From: Blasia pusilla
Lineage: Eukaryota
NCBI GenBank assembly: GCA_050084515.1
Contig: CM114271.1
Location: 46,252,001-46,316,000, forward strand
DNA: 64,000 bases
Direction of reading: 5' to 3'
Shown here: positions 11,551-64,000 of the stretch, piece after piece
How positions within the stretch are numbered: position 1 is the first letter of the stretch
Layout of the letters: each line of letters starts with the position of its first letter
The notes under the pieces: model-generated
What the model was told of the DNA's origin: nothing
What the model saw: only the letters and a program-made list of their open reading frames with translations
The model's database searches: none
Made by a program: the position numbers and the translations under genes

Positions 11551-11774
11551 ATTTTTATGGGATATGGATGATTTCAATGCACATGGCTCCACAAGCGGAC
11601 CCTCAAAATTCTTAAGTATGGGGGGGACTATCAAGTTGGATTATTTTGTGGAGGATTTTGATAGTTGCTATGAGGCATAGATGATGCATAGATAACACCC
11701 AATTGGACCCCTTCATGGCATGGAAGGTACTCTTTTAGCATTTGGAGGGCTCTTCTATGGGTGATTATCTCGAG
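11551..11774 (+). pseudogene. Decayed gag fragment homologous to the E1 gag
   Basis: FLWDMDD...GGTIKLDYFVEDFDS...PFMAWKVLF*HLEGSSMGDYLE aligns by eye with E1 LIWDMDG...GTIELEDFMREFDT...PFLAWKGLFQ.LEGPPMDDYHE (26630-26845, minus). Confidence 0.7.
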
Positions 11775-13720: not shown

Positions 13721-14345
13721 TACGTTTATGATGACTATGCAACATCAAACATATGCATAGCCTAGCACGATGGCGTTGCAAAAGTTAGTAACGACTTTGT
13801 ATGACAGTTAGTGACATGTAGAGGCAGCCCCACAAAGGCTTTTTGGTTGGTGGTGATGCTCTATTATAGAGATACGAATTGGACATGTGGCAAATATATC
13901 CTAAAAGCATGTGCTCGAGACAATATACACAAAAATCTGGGATGGTGTGACAACTAGGGTGGTGGACATATTCTACATGCCATTTATAGAGCTCATGATG
14001 GTTGCACCTTGTGTGGTGATTTTGAATAACCAAATTGGGATATTCCATTTGGCTAGCGAGTTGGCTAGTCCATATAGAGCTCTATATTGACTTCATCTTC
14101 AAATTGAATCAAGAGCTTAGCTCCTTTTGTTGGGGAAGACAACATTTTTAGCAATATGGTTTAGAAAATGCTACATCATTCCACATCCATTTCAAATTAT
14201 AACATCAGTTGGATGAACTTCCTTGCCACAATACATGACTTATGAGGAGATAGCAATGAGGATTCAACAAAACCATCCTACATTTAGTGCAATGGTGCAA
14301 ATGAAACTGAAGGTGAATATGGCAAAGAAGAGGATATAACTCAAG

Positions 14346-17590: not shown

Positions 17591-19158
17591 TCTATAAAAA
17601 AAGAAATGCTTCTTTCCTAGTTGATGATTTGAAAACGAAGACGATTTTTACTCTGTTGAAAAAATAAAATTAACTCAGTAGGCGTACTCGGAACCCGGAT
17701 CTCCCTAAACCCGGTCTAATTAGCTTCGCTCGCTCCATCTAAAAATATTTACCTGACCGTGATACTATGGCATACCGTAAACGATATCTCTAGCATGAGC
17801 ATTTGGTTGGAGGTTCCGGGGGGAACGCATTTCCCGTAAAATAACACTGGTACGATCTTTATGCGACGCACGGGCATCTTACTTGGGGATGCAATAGAGC
17901 GAATCAATTTTGGCTCGGTGAGTGGCCCAAAGCTTGAGTCGTGTCCACTATTGTCGGGTGGCTTTTGAGGTGCCCGTCCCACCGTGACGGGGCGTCCTGT
18001 GCATCTTTGTGGCCGTGTATTCGTGTGTACATATGTGGCGACATCACGACTATCCAAAACTAATTGTCTGATTCCTTGAATTCTTCACAGCCGAGAGCTA
18101 TGGACGTCCCCTTTCACGGATGATCGAACTCACAGGCCGTAATACTCTTGCTAAACTCTTACAATGGCGGTCGTGATCAAATTTAAAAATGTGAACTAGA
18201 AATATGATGGGGCAATTGGTGAGCTTTTGCTTGTCGAAAATTTCAAATGTGGAAGTCTTAGATAGCCATCCCAAGATGGGTGTCTCTAATAATAGTATAG
18301 ATAATGTAAAGGGTAAATAGGGTTTCTCATATTAGTCCGGTATGAATGTGGTGTTCACGATCCTCATCACTTCACATGCCTAAACCTTGCGTTTGATCAA
18401 ACGCAAGGCAAGAGGCAAGACTTGGGAGGAGTTCAAGTTTCAAGACATTGGTTGCCAAGAGGATTTGGAACTTGACTAGTCTTTGAGGGTTTTGCCGTGT
18501 TTAAGGTCATAACAATCGGCCCCTAAGTGCATTTAAGATGGAATTGGAAAGCTTATGTAAAGATAATTCCAACTCACCAAAGATCCAAACAAACGTAAGA
18601 ACAGATATCAAGAAGATATCCCTCAACTATCAGATTGGTAGTTGCGTTGAGGGCCAAAATGAGCAGCCCAAGAGGACTTTCCCAAAGGTAGGGAGAGGGA
18701 AGAGATCTCTAGAACTATATATAAGAAGGAGGGTCTCCAAGGGGTGCTTAGGGCGTGAACTCTACTTTGGGGCCCCGTGAGGCGAACCAAGGGCACGAAG
18801 TGGATCGGGAGGTTGGCTTCGGGGTTGTGTACATCAAGCCAAGTTCGAAGGGTGAAAGTTTAGATGTCAACCTTAGACCTCGACTCGTGATTGAATTCTT
18901 AGGTCTCGATTTTAGGATTTATTGGACAATTGGAATCGCCAGGCATGCAAGGCTCGTATTAGGTGTATGGACTATCTAGGAAGTATGTCCCAAGTCTAGA
19001 AGACTTGTCGGTGTTGGAAGTGAGGAGATAGGAATTGTTGAGCTTGTTAGATAGCCAGAGTTGAGAACTCGAGAAGATGTGTGGATGATTGATTCAAACA
19101 TTGCTTAACATGAGTGTGTTTGGGTGCAGATTAGTAAGGAGAGCGTGTTGAATGTACG

Positions 19159-19262
19159 TGTCGTGCGAATCCACATCGTCATACAACATACATCGCTGAC
19201 ATACCATACTCACATACATACATAACATAGACGAGAGTATCCACAAACACAAGTGTACCACA
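19159..19262 (-). repeat. E1 terminal A' repeat (104 bp)
   Basis: Matches 19636-19739 except for 2 substitutions; TG...CA ends. Confidence 0.92.
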
Positions 19263-19264
19263 AC

Positions 19265-19632
19265 TGAAATGCGTGAAAGACCTACTGTCATAAAACACGT
19301 TTACAATCACATACAATCGAGCCAAACCCACTCCACGATGGGAGAATCCAGGTTGAAGCTTGCGGGAAACACCATAGCCAAGAGCTCTACTCACTACCAA
19401 GGCTAACTCCCAACGCAACAGGCTCAACTCAAAGAACTGACTGTTCTTTGAGTGCACTCCACCTTATATCCTCCAACCTAAGAGCGGGCCCTACTGGGAA
19501 ACTCACCCCCAACTGAGTAACCCCCAACCCTATGTATGGAACCGCATCTCTACCAAGCCACTACGGTCCTACATAAGGAATGACCTCTACTAGCACACTA
19601 TACTCTACGACATAATCCGTATGGTCATGACA
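19265..19632 (-). repeat. E1 3' B repeat (LTR core, 368 bp)
   Basis: Matches 28533-28931 apart from about 4 transitions and a 31-bp insertion in the 5' copy; TG...CA ends. Confidence 0.95.
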
Positions 19633-19635
19633 AAT

Positions 19636-19739
19636 TGTCGTATGAATCCACATCGTCATACAACATACATCGCTGACATACCATACTCACATACATACAT
19701 AACATAGACGAGAGTATCCACAAACACAAGTGTACCACA
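19636..19739 (-). repeat. E1 internal A repeat (104 bp), directly after the PPT
   Basis: Direct repeat of 19159-19262; preceded on the sense strand by PPT AGGGGGGCGA plus GT. Confidence 0.92.
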
Positions 19740-19740
19740 A

Positions 19741-19751
19741 CTCGCCCCCCT
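19741..19751 (-). other. Polypurine tract of E1
   Basis: Sense AGGGGGGCGAG abutting A; the same motif occurs at 285-293 and 61129-61138. Confidence 0.85.
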
Positions 19752-19914
19752 AATTGGCGGTTAGGTCCCTCTAACTCCCAGGTAGCCCTATACATCTACT
19801 ACATGCTATACACCTTCTTGGGTGCCCGAATCAGAAGGCCAGGTGCTAGGTTGCCCCATCGTTAGTCGCACATCTGTAATCCATATCATGCAAAGATCAA
19901 GTTATCTACCTCTC

Positions 19915-20062
19915 CTAAGTACATCGAGGACAAACCCACCTTCCAAAGAGGGAACAACATCCAAACGTGGAGTCAAACACATAATGTGCCAACCCTAGAA
20001 CACCGATCACACACCAACATACGGGTCTGCGTTACAAAGCAGACCCACACAACATGCACCTC
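19915..20062 (-). pseudogene. E1 PHD finger (frameshifted)
   Basis: CMLCG...MLVCDRCSR/GWHIMCLTPRLDVVP/GRWVCPRC across frameshifts. Confidence 0.8.
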
Positions 20063-20069
20063 AAGCTAG

Positions 20070-21300
20070 CACGTATCATGGCTAAGCTTGGGTCAACAGT
20101 ACCATCCACATTTGGAAGATGACATGGCGCACAATTACGCACATGGTCCTTCCAAACAACTCCATCACGACCCTCCAACATGAGAACTCTAGAAGCTAAC
20201 ACCTTGCGACTCAGTAAAATAGTGCGCCTGCCGTCACATCCAACATTGTCGGGGCAATCTGCTACAACAGACATAAGTCCCCACATGGAACCTACAAATC
20301 GATGGTCGATAACCTCCACCTCAAATGGTTGCATACCGCAACGTATCCCTGTGTTGAGCAATGGCAAGATTCTCAAAGGCCGTTGGCATAACTCTCCGAA
20401 AGAGCTCCGCCGAGAACACACCTCATCCACATCTCCGGGTCATCAAGGTTCACCACCTCACTAGACTCCCGACCAATTTCTGCTGGCAAGTCCGGATCTC
20501 GGCCGATAAAAGTAAAATAAGGTGAGAAGGAAGCCAAGGATGCTTGGCGATCGAACCTATACCCCATGGCTAACCATGGCAAATCGAATATCCGGTCTCC
20601 AAGATGCCCTTCAGAGGCCATACTTGCGCAATGCCCTCTTCACCGCCTCGAACCACATGCTCAGCCAAACCATCCGCCTACGGATGATCTCGAGACGTGG
20701 TCCGATGATCAATCAACGCCTTGTCACACAAGACCTGAAACTCACCCAAACTCAGACTCGGTCGGTCAAGACTTCAGGTGGTGCACCAAAATGACTAAGC
20801 ACTCTATCCAGAAATGCATACGCCGTTCCTCACTCGCCTTGTCCGGTAATGCCACCAACTCAATCCACTTGGAGAAGTGCTCCACCATCACCAACACATA
20901 TCGATGATGTCGCGATACCAACGGTAACGGTCCCGCAAAGTCCACACTCCAACGGTAACCCAACCCCATAATAGGCAAGGGGTGTAATTGTGGTGTAGGG
21001 GCATTAAATGATGCCTCACCCGGTCACAAACCATACAACGTGACACCAATCGCTGCACCGAGTATGCATGCCACGCCACCAATATCGCCAAGGAGTAAGC
21101 TATACGACGCTTTACCCCAAAATGTCCCAACTCCTCATGGGCATGTCGCACAATGCGCTCTCTCTCGAGCCAAATGTGGCACTACTCAGACTCTACCATC
21201 CTCCCACACGCGGAGAATATGTGTTCCCTCCAATCGATACCTCTTAGCACGTTGAAGAACACGGTCTCGCTCCTTGGCACTCACTATGCCCGGCACCCGA
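20070..21300 (-). pseudogene. E1 integrase (HHCC zinc finger plus DDE core), frameshifted
   Basis: HAHEELGHFG...CMVCDR; WSVDFAGPLP...VMVEHFSKWIELVALP; LPWLAMGYRF. Confidence 0.92.
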
Positions 21301-21608
21301 CTGGTCCGTAGGAACTCCAACACCAACGCATCATCATGAATATCACGCTGATCCGCACCACCATCTCCAACCTTAGGATCTCAAGGTCGCCATCTACCCT
21401 CGACTAGAGTAAGATATCACGTGGTCCTCCATACTAGAGTCCACACCTAACCAACATTAAAGGCGGATGCATGCCAACCTGGCACCATCTCCTCATCAAC
21501 CTCGCCATGCCATCTAGCCCCTGTTGTATCCTCTTGGCTAGTACATGGGTTCCTACTCAACCCATCAAGATCAAGGTTGGCAACCCAGGTCTATGTACCA
21601 CCCGGAAG

Positions 21609-21971
21609 TCATACTCTGTAAGATAAGAGCCCACCGTGCAAGCTTCCTGTAAGCTTGTCCGACTCCATCAACCACTTGAGCGGTTGGTGATCAGTAACAA
21701 GGGTAAACTGGGTGCCAAACAAGTAACACCTAAAGTGTGCCACAGCCCACACTGCTGCCAAGCACTCTCCCTCATATGAACTATAGCACGACTCCGCTGC
21801 ATTATTCGAACGACTTGCATAGGCCACCACAAACTCCATGTGCTCATCATCATGTTGTGTCAACACCGCTCCAAGTCCCAACCTACTCCAATCAGTGTGT
21901 AACTGAAATGGGCGCCCTCTGATAGGTCTCCTCAAGATAGGCGCCGCCACCAACTGGGCCTTAAGCTCCAC
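21609..21971 (-). pseudogene. E1 RNase H
   Basis: PFQLHTDWSRLGLGAVLTQ...VVAYASRS...YSSYEGECLAAVWAVAHFRCYLFG..FTLVTDHQPLKWL. Confidence 0.93.
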
Positions 21972-22049
21972 AAAAGCTCTCTCCTGATCATCTCCCTAGT
22001 GCCACTCTTGATCTGATTTCAGCAATTGGTTCAAAGGCTTTGCCATAGC

Positions 22050-22900
22050 ACTAAATCCCTTCACATACCTCCGATAATAGTTCGCCAATCCCATGAATGC
22101 TCAAACTCTACTCACATCTACCGGACGCGGAATAAGTGCAATAGCCTCCACCTTTGCTTGTTGAACTCCCAAACCACATGGATAGATCACATGACCCAAG
22201 TACTCAACATCCTCATGGAAGAACTTACACTTTCCTGGATGCAAACGTAGACCATGAGCTTTCAACCGCTCAAACACCATCTGCAAATGTATCTGATGCT
22301 CCTCCACCGTGTTATTGAACACCAAGATATCATCAATGTAACACCGAACAAAATCCAACCCTGCTAGGATCCTGTCCATCACTCTTTGAAACTCGGCAGG
22401 TGCATTCTTCAACCCAAAGGGTAAGAATTTCCACTGGTACAAACAATCCTTGCCATGAGAGTTGACACCCCAAAATGTGTCTTGGCCTTGTCACTCTCCC
22501 AAATCGGCAATTGATGGTATCTCGCTCAAGATCCAAAAATCTTGAAAATCTTTGCCTGTCCCACCACATCAAAGATCTCCTCAGTGTAGGCATGACATAC
22601 CTATCGGCCTTGGTTTGCCGATTGATAGGACGGTAATCTCCACACATCCACCTATCGTGTAGTTGCCATGCATATCCTTTTTGGCGGGCATGACAAAGTG
22701 GGCGATGCATACTCTCCATGCGACAACTCCACTAATCCAGCCTCCAAAAGGTCCAACGTCCTACTCAATCAAGTCCCTCTCCATATCACTATATCGATAG
22801 GGACGACGGAAGATTGGCGTATCACTAGCCAAATCAATCCGTATACCGGTCCAACCAGAGAACCCAACTCCTTCATGCTAAAGGCAAAACAACTCCTATA
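22050..22900 (-). pseudogene. E1 reverse transcriptase, frameshifted
   Basis: MCGDYRPIN; PFGLKNAPAEFQRVMD; YIDD at 22329-22340; KCKFF..VEYLGH. Confidence 0.95.
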
Positions 22901-23269
22901 AGCACGTAGGAGGCGTGTCAGCGTTGTTTCTCACCTCCCGTAAGCTTGGGCCCAAGTAATGGCTCCCAAGTCTCCTCCACCGGCACACTAGAGGGAGAGG
23001 ACGATGCCATTGGGCACTCATAACCCCCTCACAAGATGGTACACCCTTAGCTACACCATCATCCGAGCAAATAACTCCTCCACCAAAGCATGAGCAACCA
23101 ACTCCACATGCCCAGCCATTACATCCCATTTACTCCAAGGATGCAAAATACTACTCTCCTCGCCCCGGGCCGATGCCTCTACCGCCCCGGTAGCCATCGA
23201 GCTCATTACAAGGGGTGGAAGACCCATGACATAGTCCGAAGTCGATTTGCTCGCCATACCAAGACTCAA

Positions 23270-24215
23270 AATCCAAGTCAAACAATTCAGGTCCATGGCC
23301 GACCCAACACATGACGTCGTGAAGCCTCAGAAATAGAAGCAACATTTGTCACACCAAGAGCAAATCCCATCGCACGCTCTCTCTCATCAGCGTTAGGCTC
23401 CACCAACTGCCGCACATGAGAATCCCATACAAGCCGGACCACCTTCCTCGTAGGCATGTGACGAGGAAAACTCACAAATGTGGGTAGTGCCATCCTAGGG
23501 TGGCCCACACGGTTCACCACCGCCATGGGTGACCGATCAATAACCCTCACCACTTGAGAAAGTCGCCCAAGATTCAAGATACTATCCCTTTGAAGGCGAG
23601 GATCCCGCCGCACCGCATCATATGCTCGACGAGAACCTCCTAGGCAACAAGTTTGTCCACCACAAGCGTGGGCGATGTGCACGCTGAGCCAACTCAGGCG
23701 CAGATCCAACAACACCGCTGGTCCAATCCAAGACCGCACTCATGAACACTCGCCATCATCCGGGTCCGAGTGTCACCCAACAATGGAACATTCTCCGAAA
23801 GTAAGCTAGAGCACGTGCTCGATGAACTGAAGATGTCGTAACACCCGTAACATCTCCCAAAACAATCGAGACCTAGGGTCATGTAATCCCTCACCCTCAC
23901 CCGACAAAGACGTATGACTGACGACATGGCCATCCAAAGAATCACCAAATCCACAGGACCAACCCTCTCAAGGTCCTGCGCCCCCAACAATGCAATGTGT
24001 GATGGTAAAGCACGCTGGTACCCACGAATAGCTGATGGCGGCAACAACTCAGGGTATCTCCACATCAACTGACCAATATGTCGAGATGAGACTCTATGGG
24101 CCGTCTCATCTCGCTCCACATACACGTATCTCCGCACAGGAATACCGGCCTGCAACACTGCCGCCAAACCAGTGCTAATCCCACCAAAGAGATCTAACAC
24201 ACAAATGCCCTCCGG
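23270..24215 (-). pseudogene. E1 DNMT3-like C5 cytosine DNA methyltransferase domain, frameshifted
   Basis: Motif I VLDLFGGI (~24177-24200), motif II YVE, motif IV DLVI/GWPC (GWPC 23924-23935), motif VI ENV (~23788-23796), motif VIII AHRPRLWWTNL (~23648-23680), motif IX ERERAMGF, motif X RRHVLG. Confidence 0.9.
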
Positions 24216-24519
24216 AGGATACTGCCATACAATGGGTATAGTATCCAAAGGGGATAACCCAACTGGACCAGAAGTAGGAGTCCATTTGTGGGGCCTCCTC
24301 TTCCTCGTGAGGTATAATGACCTCACACCAAGCCTCTGCACTAGGCGATCGGCCTCCTGCCGTAGTGCACCGCCTGAACTCCAAAGTGGCACATCCAACG
24401 ATGAGGATGCCACTGCTGCAAAAATAGGGACCTCCTCTACCTCCTCATGCGCAGGAGAATCCATAGCAGATACATTACCCTCCAAAAAGTCTCCTGGCCA
24501 AGTGACTACTCCACTAAAA

Positions 24520-25140
24520 CCAGCCCACAGATGCTAACACTGGGGAAGACCCTCCGGTCGAGCCCGGAAATAAATCTCACAGAACTTGGCTCATACGTCC
24601 ATCCCCAGATCGCCAACCAGGTGCAGAAGACGCTGCCTCACCCAATAATCCATCTGAAAACCCATTGGGTACAATATTGCTCCTCCAACTAGTACATCAT
24701 ACGACTCGGTGATGTGACTACCGCATGATACTCCCAACCGGGAGCTATGATCTGGTCTCAATCATGCAGTAAAACTTCTCCGTGTCATGAATTGAGACCT
24801 ATCATTGGCTCCTCCTAGTGATGTTTGAATCTGGAATGGGCAAGGCTCAAGCTCGACCTCCGAATACCCAAACCAATACATGCCGCCTTTCCCAACATCA
24901 AAGGTTGGGCACCGAGTCTAACAAGACTCTATCTGGTCTATACACCTGTCTGTAGGACTCACCAATCGGAAGATCCCACTCCGGTTGTCCAACATACATA
25001 CACAGGTGTAAGCCTCTCACGATCAATGGCTGGCCGGGTGGTAATGCATCCATCTTCGCCATTTCGCCGCCAAGTAGCACCGGGTACTCAATGCTACTCG
25101 ACATAGAGGGTCGCTCCACCGCAACACCCTCATCCACCTC
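24520..25140 (-). pseudogene. E1 aspartic protease, frameshifted
   Basis: RVLLDS(G)AQPLM at about 24896-24930 once a 1-nt deletion is restored. Confidence 0.75.
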
Positions 25141-25399
25141 AACATGTGTAGCAAGAATACCCCACCTTCACACAACGTGGTCGCTAACTGAAATACTGAG
25201 CTAAGTCAACTCCTAAAGCCATCGCCCGTGGCGAAAACAATGGTGATCCAACACCGAAGTTGCCATCCGCATAATCTTGCATTGGATGATGCATCCGTGT
25301 CTACTACACGCGATGTAGATGCCTCGATCCCCACTGTCGGCTCAATAGGTGCGAGGAACCATGGATGGAGTCCTAAGCACCTCAGACAACAAGAATGAC

Positions 25400-26020
25400 C
25401 GGGAAGCCTAGCTCGCCTCCCGCCTCACCCCTCTGTGGGTCCAACTCCACAAGAGCACCACGTGGCTCGACGCCGAGTGGCTCCTCTCAGAATCGTGATG
25501 CCTCAACTTTGTCCGCACTCGCCATATAAGAGAGATCATCCCCTCCATAAGAGGTGGAAGCCCTCGCTCCCGAACCTGATCTATGTTGGATACCGACCAT
25601 AGTAGCCAACTTCTCGCTCCAATCGCCAATCGTGGCGACCATAGTCGACTCCTCGTAGTGGTAGGGGTAGCCACCGTGAGGCTCTCCAACCACCTGGTCC
25701 ACCTCTACCACCCCTACCACCTCTACCACCTCGGCCTCTCGGAGCTACTCCACCACGGCCACGGCCTGATCTCAACTCGGATGAAGATCAAAGCAACGCT
25801 CTCGAGGATGACCTAGTCTCCGCAATGATCACACTGAGTTGGGGCCGATCGAGGCCCATCCTCCAAAGTCCGTCTCCCATCCTCTTGGGGACAAAACTTC
25901 CTAACATGATCACCTCCACATGTCCAACATGATCGTCCCTGGGGCAGCAAATGAAGGCAATGGTCTCTGCACAAATGTCCTCTAGGACTTGACTCGAGGG
26001 CGTGTACCCCCACGACTCCC

Positions 26021-26052
<32 letters not shown>

Positions 26053-27156
26053 GAGACTCTGAGGTGGGCGGCTGAACACGAGAAGTAGTAGTTGTATCCC
26101 TACTGAATGCGGATGTCACCACTCTCTCCTTCACCATGTTAAGCTCAATCTTCTCAGATAGAGCAAACACATGGGTCAATGTGGGTGAATCATCACTCAT
26201 AAGAGTAGCATCACGTACCCTACGGCGCAAATCTCTGTCCAAGATCCCATACCAAAACTGGACTGCCTGATCCTCAATCACACCCTGGGTAACTGAAATC
26301 AAGCGTCACATACGAGTGTATGCCTCACGAAGACTCTCACCAGTTTTTCGCTCAAAGTCCTGAAGATTCCTCAACTTCTCCGTCTTCACTCCCTGATAGT
26401 TCTTCTTCAACCTCTTGAAGAACTCGCAGAATCGGCTAACGATGGTGGGGCACTAGTACCTCCACTAGTACCCCCACTCGGCTCTGCACTGCACCACTTT
26501 CAATGGTCGGGCCGGGCCGGGCATAGTAGGAGCACTACTACCAATACCACCATGGGTGATAGACACATAACTGGAGACCAATATTGTCTCCATGCCTCAA
26601 TCTCAAAGCAACATGGTCCTTCCTAAACTCATGGTAATCATCCATGGGTGGTCCTTCCAAGTCTTTGAAACAACCCTTCCAAGCCAAGAAGGGTGTAAAC
26701 AACGTGCGTTCCGCAACATCCGCATATCACACCACGTATCAAACTCCCGCATGAAGTCCTCCAACTCAATGGTGCCCACTTTGCACCGAGTATCGTCGTG
26801 GGCCCTTCATGGCCCCATATCCACCGTCCATGTCCCAAATCAATGGAGCCGCAACACTCGATAACAACGTAGAAGACTCGGTGTTTGGAACACCCTGGTC
26901 CTCCTCTTCATCAACCGTCGGAAGTGGAAAAGGTAGCCGATACCTAAATCCACTCCGTGTGAAACCACCACTGTCCGCACCACGGTCCCCAACCAGACCA
27001 TCCGACAGCTCCGTGATGACCAACGCCGATGCCGCACCACCACCAAATTACCCAAGTGACGTCGATGTCGCTCTACTATTGTAGCTCTACTAGCTATGGA
27101 TGTAGGCAATCTAACCTTTCATCACTACAAGAAGCCTCCCACGGTCTACTGGTCAT
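25400..27156 (-). pseudogene. E1 gag with CCHC zinc knuckles and an RGG-rich tail, frameshifted
   Basis: CWTCGGDHVRKFC, a second knuckle CDHCG..H.RERC, and RGRGGRGGRGG; lies upstream of protease. Confidence 0.8.
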
Positions 27157-27740
27157 CACTCCAGCCTCACTACCGGTAGCACACAGGAGTAACACTACTC
27201 TGGAAATCAGCGTCAACCCCAACAATGGGCGCGCAAGCAAGAAGCACGATGGAGGGGATCCAAACACAGGAAATCCAACGACAACCCTCCAATCGCAAAT
27301 GGAAATCAAGGTAACACAATCCACCAAACGTGGTGCCCTCTGAATCCACAAAACCCACCACACAATTCTAACGCAATAGCTACTCCGCGCGGGTCGATGA
27401 CGTGCTAGTAACACGCAAAGACCTGAAAATATCACCTGCATGGAGAGGCTACACCGTACTATGCGCTAGAGGTACATCAACCAAAAACCTGAGATGCATA
27501 AAGCGCCTAACACATCTCCGAACAAAGACCAAATGAGCTGTCATGCAGTACATCTGGCATAGTTAAGAACTCGGTAGTTAAGCGTCCTCCAGGCATAATA
27601 GCCCAAAGATGGGTGACCAGTTATGCAAAACTCAAATCCCAAATCCTGAAAAAATTTCCTCACGCCCAAGCAAGCAAGCTTGCTTGCTTGCTCCTTGCTC
27701 CTTACTCCGCCTCTCACGCCCACTCGCCCGAAGCTACCAC

Positions 27741-27780
27741 GAGTTGCCTCGAGTTGCCTCGAGTTGCCTCGAGTTGCCTC
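27741..27780. repeat. (GAGTTGCCTC)x4 tandem repeat in the E1 leader
   Basis: Direct inspection. Confidence 0.9.
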
Positions 27781-28520
27781 GAAACGCCGAGAAATGCTCG
27801 AGACATGCCCCGTTCGCCATGCTTCGCTATGGAGAGAGGTCCAACCAGGGCGCCCCCAATGGGATAGGCGTCTCCAACAATGAACGAGTCACCAACCAAC
27901 CAGCCCCTCCGATCCATCCGGCCCACCATAGCGGACCTTGAGCTAGTCCGCAAAATTTAGATCAGAAATTACTTCACAAATACGTGACCAAATCAAATCT
28001 GTTTGATCAGAATTCAATTGACCACCATAGCTATCTCCCCACAAAACTCAGCTACAACCGAGCTCCGTACTCAAGCTAAAAATCAGACAAACTTGTCTGT
28101 CCATACACCTCTAGAACCAAAACCGACAGGCGCTTCCGCCAAGTTTCATGCACGCAGAAATCCCAACGCTCCACGCACTCGAGCAGATAGCTTCACATGA
28201 GATCACAATACAAGTAGCAATAGGAACCTCTCACCCGATCTGGATGAACTTCAACAGAGCTTCCGCACTCCAAGCTCTCCACATCGAAAAGCGCCGAACA
28301 CGAACAGAATCTTCAATGCTTGATAACTTCCAACTCCCTTGACGAAACCGGCGATCTACAGCGTTGGAAAGCTCTCAGCAAGGCGCTTCTTTCCCAACCA
28401 ACCACGCACCTGATTCACACCTCCAACATAGGCAACAAGCCCGAACATCCACGGCTGAGTACACAATCAGCCCTAACCAGATCCTACTGATCTACAATCC
28501 AAGCTACCATCAATCTACTC

Positions 28521-28532
28521 CAGTTCTTTGAG
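28521..28532 (-). other. E1 primer-binding site (self-priming type)
   Basis: Sense CTCAAAGAACTG abuts the 5' B repeat, is not a TGG-start tRNA PBS, and is exactly complementary to CAGTTCTTTGAG in B. Confidence 0.75.
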
Positions 28533-28931
28533 TGAAATGTGTGAAAGACCTACTGTCATAAAACACGTTTACAATCACATACAATCGAGCCAAACCCACT
28601 CCACGATGGGAGAATCCAGGTCGAAGCTTGCGGGAAATACCATAGCCAAGAGCTCTACTCACTACCAAGGCTAACTCCCAACACAACAGGCTCAACTCAA
28701 AGAACAGTCAGTTCTTTGAGTTGAGCCTCAAAGAACTGACTGTTCTTTGAGTGCACTCCACCTTATATCCTCCAACCTAAGAGCGGGCCCTACTGGGAAA
28801 CTCACCCCCAACTGAGTAACCCCCAACCCTATGTATGGAACCGCATCTCTACCAAGCCACTACGGTCCTACATAAGGAATGACCTCTACTAGCACACTAT
28901 ACTCTACGACATAATCCGTATGGTCATGACA
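28533..28931 (-). repeat. E1 5' B repeat (399 bp)
   Basis: Direct repeat of 19265-19632; flanked externally by the TSD TACG. Confidence 0.95.
28727..28768 (-). promoter_or_regulatory. Putative E1 LTR promoter: TATA box and initiator
   Basis: Sense TATAA starting at 28767, with a CA initiator 30 nt downstream (28738/28737). Confidence 0.6.
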
Positions 28932-31900
28932 TACGTTTCTGCAATATTATAGATTGACGTTCAAGAGGAGTTGGTGCACGACAAGTTATAATAGTTCTTA
29001 CACAATTTCCTTAATAAGAGACAACGCAATGCTTAAACAAACGTTGGTGTTATCTATAATATTAAAATAGAATGGACATGTCACTGAACCAAAAACATTA
29101 GTCAATCCATAAAAATGTTTTCCTTCCACCATGTATTGCATCTTAAGGGAACATTAGGGATGAGTGAGTGGGCAATTAAGAAAGGTTATCCACTACTCTG
29201 AATTTTGATCTCTACAATGTATATAAGCTATGAGTCCCAAAATAATTGATTGTGTGTGGCATGGAAGTAACCCATATTATTGTATAATAATGCAAAAAAA
29301 TTACTTAGTGTTCATATTACAAAACTAAGGTTTTTGTCTCATCATCATATGCGAATCATACTAGTGTTTTGCACATAAAAGCTTATTTTCTTATAATTAA
29401 AATATAGAAGTCAAAATTTGATGGTTCAAAGAATTACAATTATCTCACCATTTTGTTGTTTGTGTCACCGATTTCATTTGAGACCCTCCTTTACAGAAAT
29501 TTTTGGTAGAAAGTTTAGTAACTAGGTCTTGCGTGCCCATTATGCTGCATCCTATTGAAGCCGAATGAACATTATTTTTAAAAGGATATTGGAATATTAA
29601 TTTATCCTTAGAGTTTAATAGTTAGGTATTCGTGTCGATGCACTGCATTTAATAAGTGAGGATAAAATTTAAATATGATATCAAAACTTGGCTTATATTC
29701 TTAGAGTTTGATATGCATCTAGAGGGGAAGGCGTATTTTCCATCGCGTGTCAAACATAGAAATGTAACAGTTGGAAGGTAAATTCCATCAAAACATAGAT
29801 AGTGACTTTTTAAATATAAACGCAAAAATGTAAGATTGGAAATGAATGTGAAGATATGAAACTAAAAAACAAAAAAAGTCAAGACTAGAATACATGAAAT
29901 TCATGAAAAGTCTTACATTTCATACTTGCTAATATATATATTATAATAGGCGATCCTACATGTTGAATAAGACAAAATAGTAAGATAATAAGAGAGAAGA
30001 GCAACATTTTTAAATTTTATTGAAGGATGGAATAATTTAGGGCATTGGAATATCATTTAAATTCTAATCAAGGAGTGGAATCAGTTAGAAGAGGGGAATG
30101 TTATTTCTCTACTAAGATTTAAGAAATTAGAGATTATATTTAAACTTTGAAATGAAACTTACGATGATTACTTAAAATAATCTTGTTAATTCACATTTGA
30201 TATTTCGGGGAAAGAAATGGAAAAGGGAAATAATTTCATTAATTAGAATTAAATTATAATTATGACCCCTACTTCTATGTCGTATTAGTCGGTTTCGTCT
30301 CTCACGTTGTCACGTGTTCTCCTGGCATGCGAGTGCTAAGACGATTTTGAGTGCAAACGCCGGAGAATGCAAGTTATTTTGCAGTGACTTCTTGACGGTG
30401 GAATGTGCACGGGGATGTGAGTCCAAATAAATACATTTGGATTCACTCTCCAAATTGTGTTGATTATTTGTCTCTAAGGTTTTTGTTTCTATCCAATTAT
30501 TTCTCGTATGTTTCCTAACACTCTTTTCTTCCACTCTTTGTGTTTTCCCCCCGTTGTTGCGGTTAAGTTTGAAAAATTTATAATTGTGGGTCGAAGACCC
30601 TATAAATCCCACGGTTTTGGCTAGTAATTTTGAATTTCATCCGGCCAACTCAACACATAATTTCGGACGTTATTTTATTCCACTCTCCGTTTTAACGTCA
30701 CATCCCATGTTTTTAACACCTAACCCTTGAACATTTTTTTCTTCCACTCCGTGTTAGTGTTGTAGGTCGGGTCTTCATTTGTTTTGACGATGAATTCCAT
30801 TATTTTATCCATATCGGTTTAGTATTTATTTTATATTTTAAACCCAAAAAAAAAATTTATAGAAGAAAATTATTTAAGAGAATTAGATACTATTTCAAAA
30901 TGAATGGCCATAATCAGATGTTATATATATATTTTTTTGAAATGAAAATATTTCTCAATTATTTTCGTGTGAGCATGGGCATGCTAACTAATAATTTTCT
31001 ATAAAATTTACTAGAATATCAATAACCTTGCAAATAAATGAAGAAAGATAGAGGTTTCAGGCTCGGATATAATAGACTTCAATGACGTGAGTTATATCGT
31101 GCACGGGTGCAGCCAAGGAGGGCCATGTGAGTGAAAAAGGAGGAGGAGGTGAATATGCCGACACTCCGCAGATGTTTGGAGATCGCCTCGTGGAGCGACT
31201 TGGGTGTCTTCCAGAGGTTCCAAGGTCCTATATTGTAATACGTCCTTTCCATTTGATGTACCCGAGCTCTTCGCGTACGCAAAACCCGCCGTTCGTTATG
31301 ATGGTCTATCAACGAGAACCACGGCGAATTGAAGAGATGAGTTCAAAGCGAACAGTGGGTTCGGTCACGTTTATGGAGCTTTATTCTCCGACTCCCGGCG
31401 AAGTGAAAAGAAATTAAGAGTCATCGGTACATCCTCTCGCGGCCGCTCCTGCTGGTGCACTCTCTCGCTGACACGGTTAAGAGAAGAAAAGAAGAGGGCA
31501 GTCGTCCGATTAATTGGCGGTTTGTTTCCACGGGCGGTGATTAGTCTCTAATCGCGAAGGGTTAGCGAGGCCGTGAGTCGTTCGAATTTCGAAACGGTAA
31601 CTGGGCTGGGCCTCATTCCATTTCTGCCATTACCCGCGCGGCAATGCATGCGGGGCCTGATTAAGCCAATGATAACGAGTTAAAACCGGGCAGACACAGA
31701 CTGGTTATTTATTTATTTTCTTTCCCCTGACAGATTTTGAATTGGAAATAGGTGGTAGAAAAACGTCCTTTTCCAACCAAAGACGGGCGCAGTGGGCCGG
31801 CCGGTATGTACGCCGGCGGTCTCCTGAGTCGTGACTCGTGAGTGCTGACCGATCCGTTCCACCGATGAAGTAACAGAATGAGGAGCTTGTTATTATCCAC

Positions 31901-54700: not shown

Positions 54701-56698
54701 TACCAATAAATCCAAGCAGCTGTCCAGTCCTTCAAGACACAATAGAGCAGGCCAGGACGTCCGGGTTGTTCCTTTCATACACTGGAAGAACGTGGAGCTC
54801 GATGGCAACATGCAAGGGCTTATAGTGATGAGCAATAAGGTTGTCCAAGGGAAAGCAGACATGGTGGACTTCCTCGGAGAACTAACGTCGGTTCTCAACT
54901 TCTTAGTGAATGTCTGCACTCGCAACGTAGATCAGCTCGTTGAGTCCATCGAGAGTCAGTCAGATGGTGCTAACACAAGAGAGAAGGAAGAGGCTCTCAG
55001 GAGAGTTCGCTCTGAGAAGGCTGCTCTAGAATCTCACATGCGAGCTGAAATGAGCCGTTTAGCGGGTATAGAGGGAGAATTAGAGACGACCAAGAGAGAA
55101 AAAGCAGAATTACAGAGATATTTGGACGATGCTAATGAAAGGCTGGAAGTGACAATGAAGCAGTTGAGGGAAGCCGAGAAAGTTGCCTCTGAAGTTCATG
55201 GCTCGCAACAACACATAGAAAATGAGCTACATGAGTTGTCTACCTCTAAGGCAGAACTGGACAGGGAAATGCTCACTCTGCACAAGAAAATAGCCAGCCT
55301 CGAAGGGGAACTACAAGCAGAGAGACGACGACATCAAGAGGTTGTGAGCAAGTATCACGATCTCCAGCAACAAGTTCACAAGTAAGGACTTGATTTTGTC
55401 GTCTATTCACTTGCCAGACATAGTGAAGTATGAGGAACGGAGGAATGTCAACTTTGCGTTTGGAGTACTGACGGAGGATGTCCTGATCGGTGGACTCTAA
55501 CTTAATTATCTCCTCCTGCAATCGATGTGCAGTGTCGGAAGTGATAGCTCTGCTGGCTCGTTGACAAGGGAGGGTGATTGGCGACATCAATCTGTTGACG
55601 ATGGAGATCTCCGCTTGCGAAAGGTCGGAAGCTGAAACTGTGTCCGACCAAGTGTATATAAGTCCTCATGGCACGGGTTTTGTTTCTTTCTTCATGACGG
55701 CCACGGGCCTTAGCATTGTTTTCTCATGATGACTATCTCGTCTAGGATTTTGCTTGGACATCGATTTTCTGGAACCCCCTAATTCGACTCAGGACCCGTC
55801 ATATTTGCAAGCGTCCTTTGTGGAGAGATTCCCGGGATCACGATAAGTTCACTTGTCGAGGCATTTGATTGCAGGGAATATAGAGACAGTATCTCGTTAT
55901 TTCACTTCAGAAATCACTTCACTAACAGGTTGTTCCAATCTTCAGGAGCGGGAGATATCTTCTGCGGCAGAGAAGCTCGCTGAATGTCAACGCTCCATTC
56001 TGGATCTAGGAAAGCAGCTCAAAGCCTTAACTTCACCTCGCGAATCCCTGGATGTGTCTTATGAGTCTGATACTGCATCTTCCATCGACAGAATCACTCT
56101 TAATGGCGGTCATCGCGCCATGCAAATGCAGCCCGAAGAAAGCCAATCGGAAACGAACGGGAACTCTGAGAAGCACGAGCGTACACCGTCCGGCGGGTCC
56201 AGAGAAGAGAGCACTCCATGGAGCACCCCTAGAGGGAATTCGATCTCAGGCAGTCCATTTGTTGATAGGAGAAGAAGTCCAAGCCCCAGTCCTCCTCAGG
56301 TAAACCTGGGAGCAGCTTCGAACGGCCACCACCATCCAAGCCCTGTTTACACTAGACTGTCTCAGGATTTCAAGCAGGCCAATGGATTCCATTCAGGAAA
56401 CGGGGCCAATGGCAACGGCGTCAGCAATGGTGCGGGAAGCTATCACTATGGAAGTCCCATGGCCGCGCCAGCTCCCTCAGAATTCTCTCTTGTGGGATCT
56501 CTCTCTGTACCAGCCTCTCCTGCGAGATCTCCAGCATCCGCCTTGCCTTTTAGACCTCGTGGTACGAGCCCTATGAGGTCGGACTTCTCGAACTCGTCGA
56601 GTAGTGGAAATGGCACCAAGGAAGCGGACTCTGAGTCGAGTACGACGAGCTTCAGTAGGTTTTATGCAAGAACCAAGAGCAGCAGCCGTTCAGACTGA
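51775..56698 (+). CDS. FPP: Filament-like plant protein (long coiled-coil FPP family), 5 coding exons, about 1187 aa
   Basis: join(51775..51900,52188..52368,52969..55381,55533..55623,55946..56698) = 3564 nt, all introns GT-AG and phase-consistent. FPP motifs: KRSWPWKKKS, KQHAKVADEAVTGWEKAEAEA, LDGALKECMKQLR, KLEAECQRLRILVRKKLPGPAALAQMK, LMDDFAEMEKLA, AAEKLAECQRSILDLGKQLKAL. Confidence 0.93.
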
Positions 56699-60358: not shown

Positions 60359-61127
60359 TTTCGTGCGCATACACATCGCTACACAATATACATCGCTATC
60401 ACCGAACACACACATAAACATGCACGATCCCATGCTAACTCATCGCATCCAAACAACGAGACAAGAAGTACTAAAATATCTCCAATACAGTAAGATCCAA
60501 TCTCTTTCTACACCATCTCACACCATAGCTCTCAAAGGTGTGCACTCTCTCTCATGTCAAACCAAACCCAGTCTCCTAATGAGAGGCTTGGGTTACACTC
60601 ACAAGGCAAGGGACCATAGCTTCGCCGCCTCATGCCAAGAGGTTCAACAAAGAGAGAATGAGCTCTCAAGCTTTCTCTCCTTGAGGTATACCCCTCCCCT
60701 CTCCCAAGCTCTCTCCATGGTAACCTATTCTCCCAAATCACCTCCTTGGCTCTTGAATTGATGTAGGAGGTCAAGGGCCACTTACCAAACATAGAAAGTT
60801 GATCATATACTCAAAATGGTACTCACCTAAAATAGTAAGTTTCTCAATATTGCTCCAAATGAGCCGAAACGAAGGGGAAACCTGCTCTCTCAGGTTTCTC
60901 GGGGCCTCAACAAGTCATCCTTGACCTACTGAGCGTGTCCTCCACTACTCAAAAAGGTGCTCTAATAGATCTCACCGATATATCCTAAAAGACGTGATAA
61001 TTGTTGTGCGCATACACATCGTTATACAACATACATCGCTGTCACCGAACACACACACAAACACGCACAATCCCATGCTAACTCATGGCATCCAAACAAC
61101 CAGACAAGAAGTACGAAAATATCTCCA
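60359..61127 (-). repeat. A-B-A split terminal repeat of E3
   Basis: 126-bp direct repeats 60359-60484 and 61002-61127 flank B. Confidence 0.9.
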
Positions 61128-61314
61128 ATCGCCCCCCTAGCTGGTGCTTAGGTCCCTCTAACTCCAGATAGCCATCTATTCCTTCCTACCATGACATACA
61201 TCTCTCGGACACTAAGAGCAAGAAGGCCGGGTGCTCATGTGGGCCCATCATTAGTCGCCTTCTTGTCATCCATGTCACATAAAAAGTCAGAATTGAAACC
61301 TGCCTAGTATCTCC

Positions 61315-62740
61315 TCTATGTACATCTAGGACACATCCATCTTCCTTGAGGAACCCTAGTGAGAGGTGGCGTCAGACATGCCATATGCCAACCTCTCGAA
61401 CATCCATCAGAGACTAGCATCATGGCCGCTCTACGGGCAGGGTACCACACAACATACAACGCAAGCCTACATGAACTATTGCTAAGCTCAGATCTACTGT
61501 ACCATCAATGTTAGGAAGGTGACATGGCGCACAATTACGCACATGGTCCTTCCATACCATACCATCGCGTCCCTCCAGCAAGAGAACACCGGATGGCAAA
61601 ACGTCACGCACTCTCAGGATAGTGCGCCCTGCAATCACATCCAACGTCGTCACTGTCGTCTGCTGCAAGTAGACGTAATCTTCCTGATGAAACCTCCGGA
61701 TAGTTGGTCGATAACCACCACCCCGAATAGTCGCATACCTCAACGTATCCGGATGTTGCGCAATCGCCAAGTTCTCGAACGCCATGGGCATCACTCTCTG
61801 AAACAACTCAGCCCTCTGAGAACATGCTCGTATCCATACATCTAGGTCATCAAGGTCCAGCACTTCACCAGCATCTCGACGAATGGCCGCAGGTAAATCT
61901 GGCTCTTGGCCATAAAGTAGCAAGTACTATGAAAAAGACACTAAGGATGCCTGCTTGTTGAATCTGTATCCCATCGCCAACCAGTGCAATTGGAGGTCCC
62001 AATCTCTTAGGTGACCTCTCTGCAAGCCATACTTGCGTAAACCCCTCTTCACCGTCTGCACAACTCTCTCCGCTAATCCATCCGCCTCGGGATGATCTCG
62101 CGAAGTCATGCGATGGTCGATCAGCGCCTGATCACACAAGGCTTGGAACTCACTTCGAAACTGAATACCCTGGTCTGTCAACACCTCAGCCAGTGCGCCA
62201 TAATGACTCATCACTCTATCAAGGAAGGTATAAGCTATTCCCTTACTTGCTTTGTCAGGCAATGCAACCAACTCGATCCACTTCGAGAAGTGCTCGACCA
62301 TCACCAACACGACTGTGACGCTCCGTCAAAGGCAAAAGTCCTGCAAAATCTAAACTCCATCTATACCCTAAGCCCATGATCGGTAATGGATGCAACTGTG
62401 GAGTTAGAGCATTGAATGATGCTCGGAACCAATCACACACCATGCACATGGCAAAAAACTGGTGAACGTCAGTCTGCATGCCTCGCCACCAAATCTGAAT
62501 CTGGAGCAAGCAGTACGTCCGCTTCACCCCAAAGTGACCCAACTCCTCATGGGCATGCTGCACTAGTCGTGCTCTATGCAAAGGATGCGGCACTATGCGT
62601 ACTCTTCCATCCTCCCAAACCCTCAAAACATGTGTCCCCTCCCAACGGAACCGTCTGGCCCGCTGTAGGATCCGATTCCGCCACGGTGCTCGCAAGGCTT
62701 CCAGTACGAAGGTACTCCAAGACTACTCCATCATCATGAA
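61315..62740 (-). pseudogene. E3 integrase plus PHD finger, frameshifted
   Basis: HAHEELGH...CMVC; WSLDFAG; VLTDQG; HPEADGLAERVVQTVKRGL; CMLCG...GCSRGWHMACLTPPL...WMCPRC. Confidence 0.92.
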
Positions 62741-62993
62741 TATCTCGGCCATCTGTCGTCTCCTCATTGGCCTCGGGATCCAAGGACTCTCTACTAGACC
62801 TCGCCATCAAAGTCTCCACACTCTGGCTCTCCATAGCCAACATGCCTAAATAGGTTGACGTGTGCCATCCTGGCAGTGACTCCTCATCACTCTCTCCATG
62901 CCATCGAGCTCCAGTCGCATCTCGCTGACTCGGGCATGGGTTACGACTCAACCCATCTGCATCCTGGTTGAGCGTCCCAGGTCTATGTACCAG

Positions 62994-64000
62994 CTAAAAA
63001 TCATACTCTTGCAACAACAAAGCCCATCTCGCAAGCTTCCATGTAAGCTTGTCGGACTCCATCAACCACTTCAGTGGTTGATGATCAGTGATGACGGTAA
63101 AGGGATTTCCGAATAAGTAACACATGAAATGCGCGACAACCCACACTGTAGCCAAGCACTCACCCTCATACAAGCTATACTTTGCCTCTGTAGCATTGTT
63201 TGAGCGGCTAGCGTAAGCCACCACGAACTCTCTACCCTCATCATCATGCTGGGTGAGCACCGCTCGAAGCCCCAACATGCTCCAATCTGTGTGCAACTGG
63301 AAAGGACGCCTCCTGATTGGTCTCCTCAAGATGGACGCGAACGTTAACCTGTCCTTGAGCAACTGAAATGCTCGTTCCTACTCACCCCCTTGTACAACTC
63401 GTGATCCACCTTGGTCAGCAAGGTCAGCGGCTTTGCAATCGAACTGAATCCCTTGACGTACCACCGATAGAAGTTCTCCAATCCCATGAATGCGCGAACA
63501 CGGCTCACATCTGTAGGGCATGGAATGCATGAGATAGCCTCTACCTTTGTTTGTTGAACACCAAGGCCCCATGGGTATATTGTATGACCAAAGTACTCAA
63601 TCTGGTCGTAGAAGAACTTGCACTTGCCTTGATGTAGCTTCAGCCCATGTAATTGCAATCGTCAAAACACCTCCTCTAGATGTCGCTCATGCTCCTCAAC
63701 CGTGGCGCTAAAGACTACGATGTCATCAATATAACACCTAGCAAAATCCAAACCAACCAAGATCCTATCCATGACCCTCTGAAACTCATCCGGGGCATTC
63801 TTTAACCCAAATGATAAGAACCGCCTCTGTAACAAACAATCCTTCCCGTGAGGATCGATGCCCCAAAATGCCGTCTTCTGCCTGTCCTCCAATCTGATAG
63901 GCAGCTGATGGTATCCAAATCGCAAATCCAATGAACTAAAAACCTTTCCATGACCAATCGCATCAAAGATCTCCTCAGGGGTGGGCATGGCATACCTATC
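62994..64000 (-). pseudogene. E3 RT and RNase H, frameshifted
   Basis: DLRFGYHQL; FGLKNAP..FQRVMD; CYIDD; FQLHTDWS; TDHQPLKWL. Confidence 0.93.

Follow-up and report, generated by a model that had tools for sequence, protein, structure and literature searches.

A DNMT3-type cytosine methyltransferase domain in a degenerate liverwort retrotransposon, very probably of the Gypsy-DNMT3 kind

Hosts fight transposons chiefly by methylating cytosines, so it is paradoxical for a transposon to carry a de novo methyltransferase gene of its own. This paradox is raised by a stretch of 64,000 nucleotides from Blasia pusilla (assembly GCA_050084515.1, contig CM114271.1, positions 46,252,001 to 46,316,000 of the forward strand; hereafter the window, numbered from its first letter). 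A reading made from the letters of this stretch, referred to here as the sequence-only reading, placed a DNMT3-like cytosine methyltransferase at 23270-24215, inside the pol polyprotein of a gypsy-type retrotransposon, between the protease (PR) and the reverse transcriptase (RT). What is this domain, to what kind of element does it belong, and is it a part of that element or an accident of one copy? The analysis described below indicates that the stretch is very probably the DNMT3-type domain of a degenerate Gypsy-DNMT3 retrotransposon copy in a marchantiopsid liverwort. The kind of element is already known, as the Gypsy-DNMT3 of streptophytes; the land-plant member is new.

All six methyltransferase motifs quoted in the sequence-only reading occur on the minus strand and follow the order I-IV-VI-VIII-IX-X that is canonical for C5 cytosine methyltransferases, though three-frame translation distributes them among all three minus frames; the reported span is also nearly exact, the domain being measured from about 24260 to 23270. 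The longest open pieces of the stretch encode 279 amino acids (23694-24533) and 150 amino acids (23287-23739). The 279-residue piece matches 24 proteins at E<=0.001 among 5.8 billion, with a best E-value of 5.7e-74, and the motif set is therefore not the product of chance. These proteins comprise 17 from Marchantia polymorpha, 2 from Calypogeia fissa, 2 from Sphagnum and 3 others, and PF00145 is precomputed in 18 of the 24. Against PDB sequences (phmmer), the same piece reaches an E-value of only about 0.03, the top 18 rows all being DNMT3A or plant DRM-type enzymes. Frame-aware alignment, carried out with a custom dynamic-programming script, pairs 23043-24458 with the intact Calypogeia protein P0005 at 304 of 469 identical codons (65%), with 18 frame-shifting steps and no stops; over the domain, the identity to Marchantia is 74%.

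The window domain clusters with polyproteins of Marchantia, Calypogeia, Sphagnum and Closterium that are built in the order gag-PR-DNMT-RT-RNase H (RH)-integrase (IN). The position between protease and RT in a gypsy-type pol, as first read from the window, is thus the same in the window and in intact relatives. In the Marchantia protein P0011, PF00145 (residues 460-529) is followed by RVT_1 (833-919); the Closterium protein P0051 carries zf-CCHC, PF00145, RVT_1, RNaseH and rve in that order; and in P0035 and P0039, Asp_protease lies N-terminal to PF00145. The Pfam gathering cut-off for PF00145, which is 22 bits, was passed by intact relatives at 26-45 bits in three scans (3 of 5, 5 of 5 and 2 of 2 proteins); in the scan with 3 of 5, P0002, P0011 and P0005 pass and P0019 and P0003 do not. 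When 1.84 billion representatives were searched with HMMER, 9,921 proteins scored E<=0.001 and 413 clusters reached E<=1e-30; the 150 top matches all lie at or below 1.8e-58, many of the proteins being 1,000-3,400 residues long. The named members of the family come from Marchantia, Calypogeia, Sphagnum and Closterium sp. NIES-53/54, together with a 'pol' of Scenedesmus sp. PABB004, which was the sole named entry among 20 further representatives. In addition, 76 metagenome loci encode the domain, and the window element aligns with metagenome contigs over about 7 kb at 76-81% nucleotide identity.

Two pol architectures are found in the family. The window, P0011, P0051, P0046 and P0048 share PR-DNMT-RT-RH-IN, as opposed to RT-RH-DNMT-IN in Scenedesmus and many metagenome contigs, where a PHD finger often stands C-terminally behind the integrase (e.g., P0058). 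When rows with at least 290 profile positions were counted, RT motif matches inside the DNMT domain being excluded, the DNMT preceded RT in 10 of 184 rows and followed it in 55, the other 119 having no RT motif. In a FastTree phylogeny of 185 rows, the smallest clade with the 11 'before' rows (the window included) has 52 leaves and contains no 'after' row, and the converse holds as well. A quick IQ-TREE analysis of 62 rows, which took in every named row, the full set of 11 'before' rows, 28 of the 55 'after' rows and a random 16 of the unnamed rows, with the long branch P0081 excluded, divides the two architectures by a single branch (SH-aLRT, the Shimodaira-Hasegawa-like approximate likelihood-ratio test, 99) and groups the window with Calypogeia and Marchantia at 99. 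The Closterium copies belong to the same DNMT clade, and have the same architecture, as the bryophyte copies. Given the two pol positions, the DNMT module must have been moved or acquired at least twice. The domain is not a stray host fragment but a conserved and apparently selected part of an extensive retroelement lineage; the lineage occurs in liverworts, mosses and zygnematophyte algae and, in the second pol position, in chlorophytes.

Parts of the window stretch were also encountered at small word shares in sequencing runs X2, X5 and X11, which are labelled with other organisms, and in the air metagenomes X12-X17; the contigs of run X2 are 480-780 nt long and about 95% identical to the stretch. 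The family or its close relatives are therefore not limited to one species.

The enzyme type was approached with a profile built from 5 intact family domains and searched against all PDB sequences. DNMT3A, DNMT3B and DNMT3C were matched at E 3.8e-18 to 1.4e-13 and occupy all of the first 29 rows; DRM was matched at 4e-9 to 3e-6, M.HaeIII at 1e-7, M.HhaI at about 1e-5 and DNMT2 at 2e-4 or weaker. An AlphaFold model of the family domain, calculated from a 32-sequence alignment, has a predicted local distance difference test score (pLDDT) of 95.2 and a predicted template-modelling score (pTM) of 0.93. Among the Foldseek matches listed for this model (32 rows, ranks 1-50), all are DNMT3A, DNMT3B or DNMT3C, the best at E 2.4e-19, with template-modelling (TM) scores by target of 0.78-0.83 for catalytic-domain chains, and the structural neighbours of the domain in the ESM Atlas are DNMT3A clusters (TM 0.76). 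Profile, fold and structural-neighbour searches thus all rank DNMT3 first, in agreement with the DNMT3-like C5 methyltransferase originally proposed. In an alignment of 32 family domains (32-44% identical to the first sequence), the catalytic cysteine C111 and the glutamate E154 of ENV are invariant, and R194 and R196 of motif VIII are at least 90% conserved; intact members retain the S-adenosylmethionine-binding motif I, the catalytic Pro-Cys, ENV and RxR. Pfam scans of the relatives found no PWWP or ADD reader domains, and the likeness to DNMT3 concerns the catalytic part only. By sequence profile and modelled fold, the domain family is classified as DNMT3-type.

The genes that surround the domain (Table 1) can be followed along the whole element. 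The gag region has 320 of 500 aligned residues identical to the Marchantia protein P0002, with 17 frame-shifting steps and 2 stops, and the protease and its linker have 188 of 287, with 13 frame-shifting steps and 1 stop; the active-site stretch VLLDSxAQPLMLGK is frameshifted at the G. No protease was found by Pfam in the window fragments, and the relatives P0035 and P0039 have PF13650 above its cut-off, again N-terminal to PF00145. RT and RNase H are matched by Pfam, with RVT_1 at E 4.7e-25 on 22101-22490 and RT_RNaseH_2 at E 1.2e-30 on 21609-21995, and have 376 of 442 aligned residues identical to P0011, with 9 frame-shifting steps and 1 stop. The integrase gives rve (E 5.6e-5, 20766-21023) and Integrase_H2C2 (E 0.03, 20888-21181), both under the Pfam cut-offs, and 228 of 445 aligned residues identical to P0048, with 14 frame-shifting steps and 6 stops. 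No domain scan matched a tyrosine recombinase; what is present instead is the rve/H2C2 integrase remnant, rve being above its cut-off in relatives. The element displays traits of Ty3/gypsy elements, namely a pol that is ordered PR-RT-RH-IN and contains a DDE integrase, termini that read TG..CA, and a short target duplication.

Two plain identical long terminal repeats are absent. Instead, the 5' end consists of a repeat A only and the 3' end of B-A-B, an arrangement that is named A1...B1-A2-B2 for the split direct repeats of the DIRS order (Ngaro/PAT-type). The A pair matches in two blocks, 28727-28931 with 19428-19632 (205 nt, 100%) and 28533-28721 with 19265-19453 (189 nt, 96%), and the B pair, 19636-19742 and 19159-19265, is 98% identical; three bases separate B1 from A2. 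The element begins with TGTCA and finishes with GACA, and CGTA stands on either side of it, a 4-bp match that would occur by chance at fixed positions about once in 256 cases. A1 exceeds A2 in length by about 31 nt, the gapless blocks being offset by 9299 and 9268 nt (19428-19453 / 28721-28727), and there is therefore one short indel or duplication between copies that are otherwise 96-100% identical. Among 12 metagenome loci examined, L061 has the full A1...B1-A2-B2 arrangement, L045, L046 and L047 have the B pair only, L049 has the A pair only, and the remaining 7 show neither pair clearly. The termini of the window element are DIRS-like split direct repeats, combined with a DDE integrase and a target duplication.

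Selection was examined across 35 single-frame metagenome copies by the ratio of nonsynonymous to synonymous substitution rates (dN/dS, omega), with stop codons skipped; of the 595 pairs, 157 were saturated. The 42 pairs with dS 1.0-2.5 have a median omega of 0.18 (range 0.12-0.28). At lower divergence the medians are 0.73 for dS 0.6-1.0 (4 pairs), 0.57 for dS 0.3-0.6 (67 pairs), 0.50 for dS 0.1-0.3 (285 pairs) and 0.82 for dS below 0.1 (22 pairs), and the intact copies alone (5 open, 2 usable pairs, omega 0.82 and 0.13) are too few to be informative. This pattern, although not a clean test, is as would be expected if lineages were constrained while active and their copies decayed neutrally after insertion. 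The 35 single-frame copies contain 145 stops in total; metagenome copies decay mainly by C-to-T stops and not through frameshifts, as would be expected from deamination of methylated cytosine and in the opposite manner to the window copy. When loci L001-L047 were compared with the column majority, the commonest changes were CGA>TGA (34), CAG>TAG (19) and CAA>TAA (11).

Several results weigh against the identification of the stretch as part of a Gypsy-DNMT3 element with a meaningful enzyme. The PF00145 test proposed by the sequence-only reading is split: neither the 279- nor the 150-residue fragment of the window matches PF00145 even at E<=0.1, and it is the intact relatives that do, the missing match being ascribed to fragmentation of the domain and not to a lack of homology. 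There are 12 frame-shifting steps in the DNMT domain and about 70, plus 10 stops, over the whole element, and no working enzyme is evident in this genome. Because the coding region is broken by these steps and stops, with every gene interrupted, the window copy is dead as assembled and unable to make the enzyme; the description of the copy as young is thus borne out by its terminal repeats, at 96-100% identity, and contradicted by its wrecked coding region. Among 50 full-length metagenome domain matches, only 5 are open and 35 are in a single frame. The comparison of dN/dS across copies, also suggested beforehand, is favourable for the deep pairs alone, as the close pairs (omega 0.5-0.8) behave as expected of dead copies and give no support for function. 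The DNMT3 assignment is a ranking of PDB profile and fold matches, the trees containing only domains borne by transposable elements, and the view that the window element is of the same kind as KnitGypsy-Dnmt3, the published element of Klebsormidium nitens, draws on architecture and repeats and not on a tree. Finally, methylation of the element's own cDNA has the standing of a hypothesis discussed for published DNMT-bearing elements, as worded in the available sections of de Mendoza et al. (2018, PMC5890265).

The relation to Klebsormidium is where an alternative survives best. KnitGypsy-Dnmt3 has DIRS-like repeats together with a Gypsy domain composition, according to the legend of Fig. 4 in de Mendoza et al. 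(2018, Nat Commun 9:1341, PMC5890265), and the window element has such repeats likewise, which upholds the link to Klebsormidium elements and to the unusual termini made in the sequence-only reading. The bryophyte elements might nevertheless have gained DNMT3 independently of those of Klebsormidium, or by transfer between retroelement lineages, in which case the likeness would be convergent. Repeated, independent capture of DNMTs by retroelements is documented in the sections available of de Mendoza et al. (2018, PMC5890265) and of a 2026 preprint, the family has its DNMT at two places in pol (PR-DNMT-RT and RT-RH-DNMT-IN), and no Klebsormidium protein is among the named family matches of the database searches. 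Convergence would, on the other hand, have to produce two rare traits together, a DNMT3 domain in a Gypsy pol and DIRS-like split repeats accompanied by a DDE integrase, and the charophyte Closterium likewise carries the family, its copies sharing both DNMT clade and architecture with those of bryophytes. Independent gain is accordingly regarded as rather unlikely, and the window element is preferred as a member of the Gypsy-DNMT3 kind.

A second alternative concerns the frame shifts, which might be long-read assembly indel errors that cannot be polished in a very high-copy repeat, in which case the window copy would be young and intact. The ratio of shifts to stops is odd for decay (18 to 0 in 469 codons and about 70 to 10 overall), the short-read metagenome copies decay in the opposite way (35 of 50 in one frame, with 145 stops), and the terminal repeats are nearly identical, as noted above. 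The family is moreover extremely abundant in the likely source organism, with 34,245 contigs from run X1 matched and a depth of 1e4-1e5, and short-read polishing would therefore be unreliable; contigs of three other runs show 11-16 gap letters per 400-530 bases against the window, near what this explanation predicts. The shifts themselves, however, are not linked to homopolymers, as 6 of 18 are near letter runs of at least 3, compared with a baseline of 39%, and 1 of 18 is near runs of at least 4, compared with 8%. The A and B pairs are gapless over 205, 189 and 107 nt, where a random indel error of 1% would leave several gaps, and the host exon described below is a clean ORF of 816 amino acids that covers profile positions 17-813. 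Among the indels listed (12 of 55), those at 23085 and 23433 are shared by 70% and 89% of the depth of run X1. Assembly error as the source of the shifts is therefore considered distinctly unlikely, and the window copy is probably truly degenerate. The density of blastn gaps was also considered as a test and was rejected because the divergences differ (30 openings per kb between the window and the loci, at 79% identity, and 1-3 per kb among the loci, at 90-94%).

It is very improbable that the family domain is a pseudo-enzyme or an RNA methyltransferase instead of a DNA methyltransferase. In yeast, no DNA methylation was obtained with the DNMT of SymbioLINE, for which a role on RNA was proposed (de Mendoza et al. 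2018, PMC5890265, in the sections available); in the present family, conservation of motif I, Pro-Cys, ENV and RxR argues against a pseudo-enzyme, and the nearest folds are DNA-bound DNMT3A and DNMT3B, the RNA enzyme DNMT2 ranking far lower. The last alternative, and the one that the sequence-only reading itself had named, is that the stretch is a fragment of a host DNMT3 captured by chance in this copy and functionless for the element, which would fit a domain that is out of frame and without a PF00145 match in the window copy but is rejected as extremely improbable, as the same domain stands in frame and in the same place in polyproteins of Marchantia, Calypogeia, Sphagnum, Closterium and metagenomes, is encoded at the 76 metagenome loci, keeps its catalytic residues invariant in 32 divergent members with an omega of 0.18 for deep pairs, and is accompanied in the window by gag, PR, RT and IN genes that are equally frameshifted, so that the breakage reflects the general decay of the copy.

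What the enzyme would do for the element can be outlined for active copies. Translated within Pol between protease and RT, it would be present at the site of cDNA synthesis; it could then carry out de novo DNA methylation, with the new cDNA or the insertion site as the most plausible substrate; and such methylation might set the way in which the host reads the new copy, through self-recognition, protection from editing, self-limitation or a chromatin state. This role in methylating cDNA or insertion sites is put forward as a possibility that we hold to be somewhat doubtful. The role was left open by the earlier reports, which concern a dinoflagellate and a charophyte alga, and the occurrence in land plants moves the question to organisms with genetics, methylomes and transformation. 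If the reading is true and intact copies are expressed, an enzyme encoded by a transposon would contribute de novo methylation to bryophyte methylomes, and it would become possible to test in Marchantia what a DNMT borne by a transposable element is for. The window copy itself is a dead relic and carries no functional weight.

As to novelty, the literature search, which ran outside subscription journals and supplements, found no printed statement of Gypsy-DNMT3 elements in land plants and no paper that combines Marchantia, DNMT3 and polyprotein. The available sections of de Mendoza et al. (2018, PMC5890265) contain 0 mentions of Marchantia or liverwort and bring in bryophytes only for host DNMT3, and a 2025 survey in Molecular Biology and Evolution, in the part accessible, cites some DNMT3s as retrotransposon-embedded, as earlier reported for streptophytes. 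The members in Marchantia polymorpha are annotated only as unremarked 'hypothetical proteins'. In a broader view, for which we judge the chances to fall a little short of even, Gypsy-DNMT3 elements with split repeats would be an old lineage of green plants that carried a DNMT3-type enzyme across the transition to land; the lineage would persist in liverworts and mosses, Marchantia polymorpha included, would have reached a very high copy number in this liverwort, and would comprise two DNMT clades that correspond to the two pol positions.

The host can be placed by a single gene outside the element, which encodes a filament-like plant protein (FPP; Table 1). The exon that it has at 52935-55382 shares 78% identity with Marchantia polymorpha, 71-72% with two Riccia species and 49% with Calypogeia and Sphagnum; the host is therefore a marchantiopsid liverwort distinct from these species, and the earlier impression of a land-plant genome is confirmed.

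Table 1. Coordinates of the features of the window discussed in the text
Feature	Position	Strand	Basis or remark
Whole element	19159-28931	minus	gag - protease - DNMT - RT - RNase H - DDE integrase
Target-site duplication CGTA (4 bp), 5' side	28932..28935	minus	flank reading
A1, 5' terminal repeat, ~399 nt, starts TGTCATG	28533..28931	minus	self-comparison
gag-like region with CX2CX3HX4C zinc knuckle (CWTCGGDHVRKFC in ORF 25813-26115)	25302..26831	minus	frame-aware alignment with Marchantia P0002 residues 1-508
Aspartic protease and linker	24298..25152	minus	frame-aware alignment with P0002 residues 560-850
DNMT3-like C5 cytosine methyltransferase domain	23270..24260	minus	~330 codons; motifs I, IV, VI, VIII, IX, X in order; 12 frame-shifting steps, 0 in-frame stops
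Motif I LDLFGG	24180-24197	minus	motif search and three-frame translation of 23150-24560
Motif IV GWPC	23924-23935	minus	motif search
Motif VI ENVP	23784-23795	minus	motif search
Motif VIII AHRPR (string AHRPRLWWTNL running down from 23680)	23666-23680	minus	motif search
Motif IX ERERAMGF	23362-23385	minus	motif search
Motif X RRHVLG	23302-23319	minus	motif search
Reverse transcriptase (YIDDI 22326-22340) and RNase H	21492..22968	minus	Pfam and frame-aware alignment
DDE integrase (zinc-binding H2C2 and rve core), degraded	20010..21362	minus	weak Pfam and frame-aware alignment
B1, 107-nt repeat at 3' end of internal region, purine run (aggggggcg) before it	19636..19742	minus	self-comparison
A2, 3' copy of A, ~368 nt	19265..19632	minus	self-comparison
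B2, second 107-nt copy, ends ...CACGACA (element end)	19159..19265	minus	self-comparison
Target-site duplication CGTA (4 bp), 3' side	19155..19158	minus	flank reading
Second, related element	60363..64000	minus	IN, RH and part of RT only within window; extends past window end
Second element, 3' tail: B1	61006-61129	minus	124-nt B pair, 92%
Second element, 3' tail: A2	about 60487-61005	minus	
Second element, 3' tail: B2	60363-60486	minus	124-nt B pair, 92%
Host filament-like plant protein (FPP) gene	52935-55382 and 55847-56695	plus	Pfam, PF05911 E 3e-158; one exon a clean 816-aa ORF

Other retroelement sequences are present in the window. The second element has 72-74% nucleotide identity to 19738-22605, is matched by family polyproteins in tblastn and repeats the B1-A2-B2 tail of the first; a DNMT part, if there is one, would lie past position 64000. 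On the plus strand, 11582-11774 and 13932-14330 are remnants of a gypsy gag N-terminus and protease, 30-57% identical to family polyproteins, and no DNMT match follows these remnants. On the minus strand, 37816-40131 contains three overlapping ORFs of 248-360 amino acids that match RVT_1 weakly, at E 2e-4 and 9e-4 and short of the cut-off; they probably belong to another, unrelated retroelement.

Among known enzymes, mammalian DNMT3A, DNMT3B and DNMT3C (PDB 6w89, 6f57, 6u8p, 8tci) are the best matches of the family domain in profile and fold, and the motif order I-X is alike. The wording of the motifs is close as well, with LFdGIaTGL in DNMT3 and LFGGISTGL in the family domain, GsPC and GWPC, lfENV and ilENV, AHRaRyfWgNL and AHRPRLWWTNL, and EmERvfGF and ERERAMGF, respectively. 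However, the identity to mammalian DNMT3 is only about 22-25%, and the element domain is about 45 residues longer (331 versus about 285) and sits in a retroelement polyprotein without PWWP or ADD. To our knowledge, no DNMT3L-type partner is known for the family domain. Plant DRM2 (PDB 4onj, 7l4c), a DNMT3-related de novo methyltransferase, belongs to the second-best PDB group, and DRM matches profile positions 14-143 only, in the C-terminal part of the chain (residues about 227-350); this partial match fits the rearranged motif order of DRM, the order in the element domain being unrearranged.

Among known elements, those of the DIRS order (Ngaro/PAT-type) have the same arrangement of terminal repeats, with A at the 5' end and B-A-B at the 3' end, whereas the window element has no tyrosine recombinase and has an rve-type integrase, a 4-bp target-site duplication and RT and RNase H of the gypsy type. 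SymbioDIRS-Dnmt3 of Symbiodinium, for which alone among the published elements de novo CG methylation has been demonstrated (de Mendoza et al. 2018, PMC5890265, in the sections available), similarly combines a DNMT3-type domain in pol with DIRS-type repeats, but it is a tyrosine-recombinase DIRS element of a dinoflagellate, unlike the window element with its DDE integrase, TG..CA ends and target duplication. The closest counterpart is KnitGypsy-Dnmt3, both rare traits of which are shared by the window element because it has a DNMT3-type domain in a Gypsy pol and split repeats. Like the window family, KnitGypsy-Dnmt3 has a non-rearranged DNMT3-type domain in its Pol ORF, DIRS-like repeats, retained catalytic residues and a streptophyte host. 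The two differ in that KnitGypsy-Dnmt3 inhabits the charophyte K. nitens, in few copies (PMC5890265, in the sections available), whereas the window family inhabits a liverwort, in which it is very abundant and its window copy dead. As to purifying selection, the published Ka/Ks for KnitGypsy-Dnmt3 lies below 0.2 (same source), and the deep pairs of the window family, unlike its close pairs, agree with this at 0.18.

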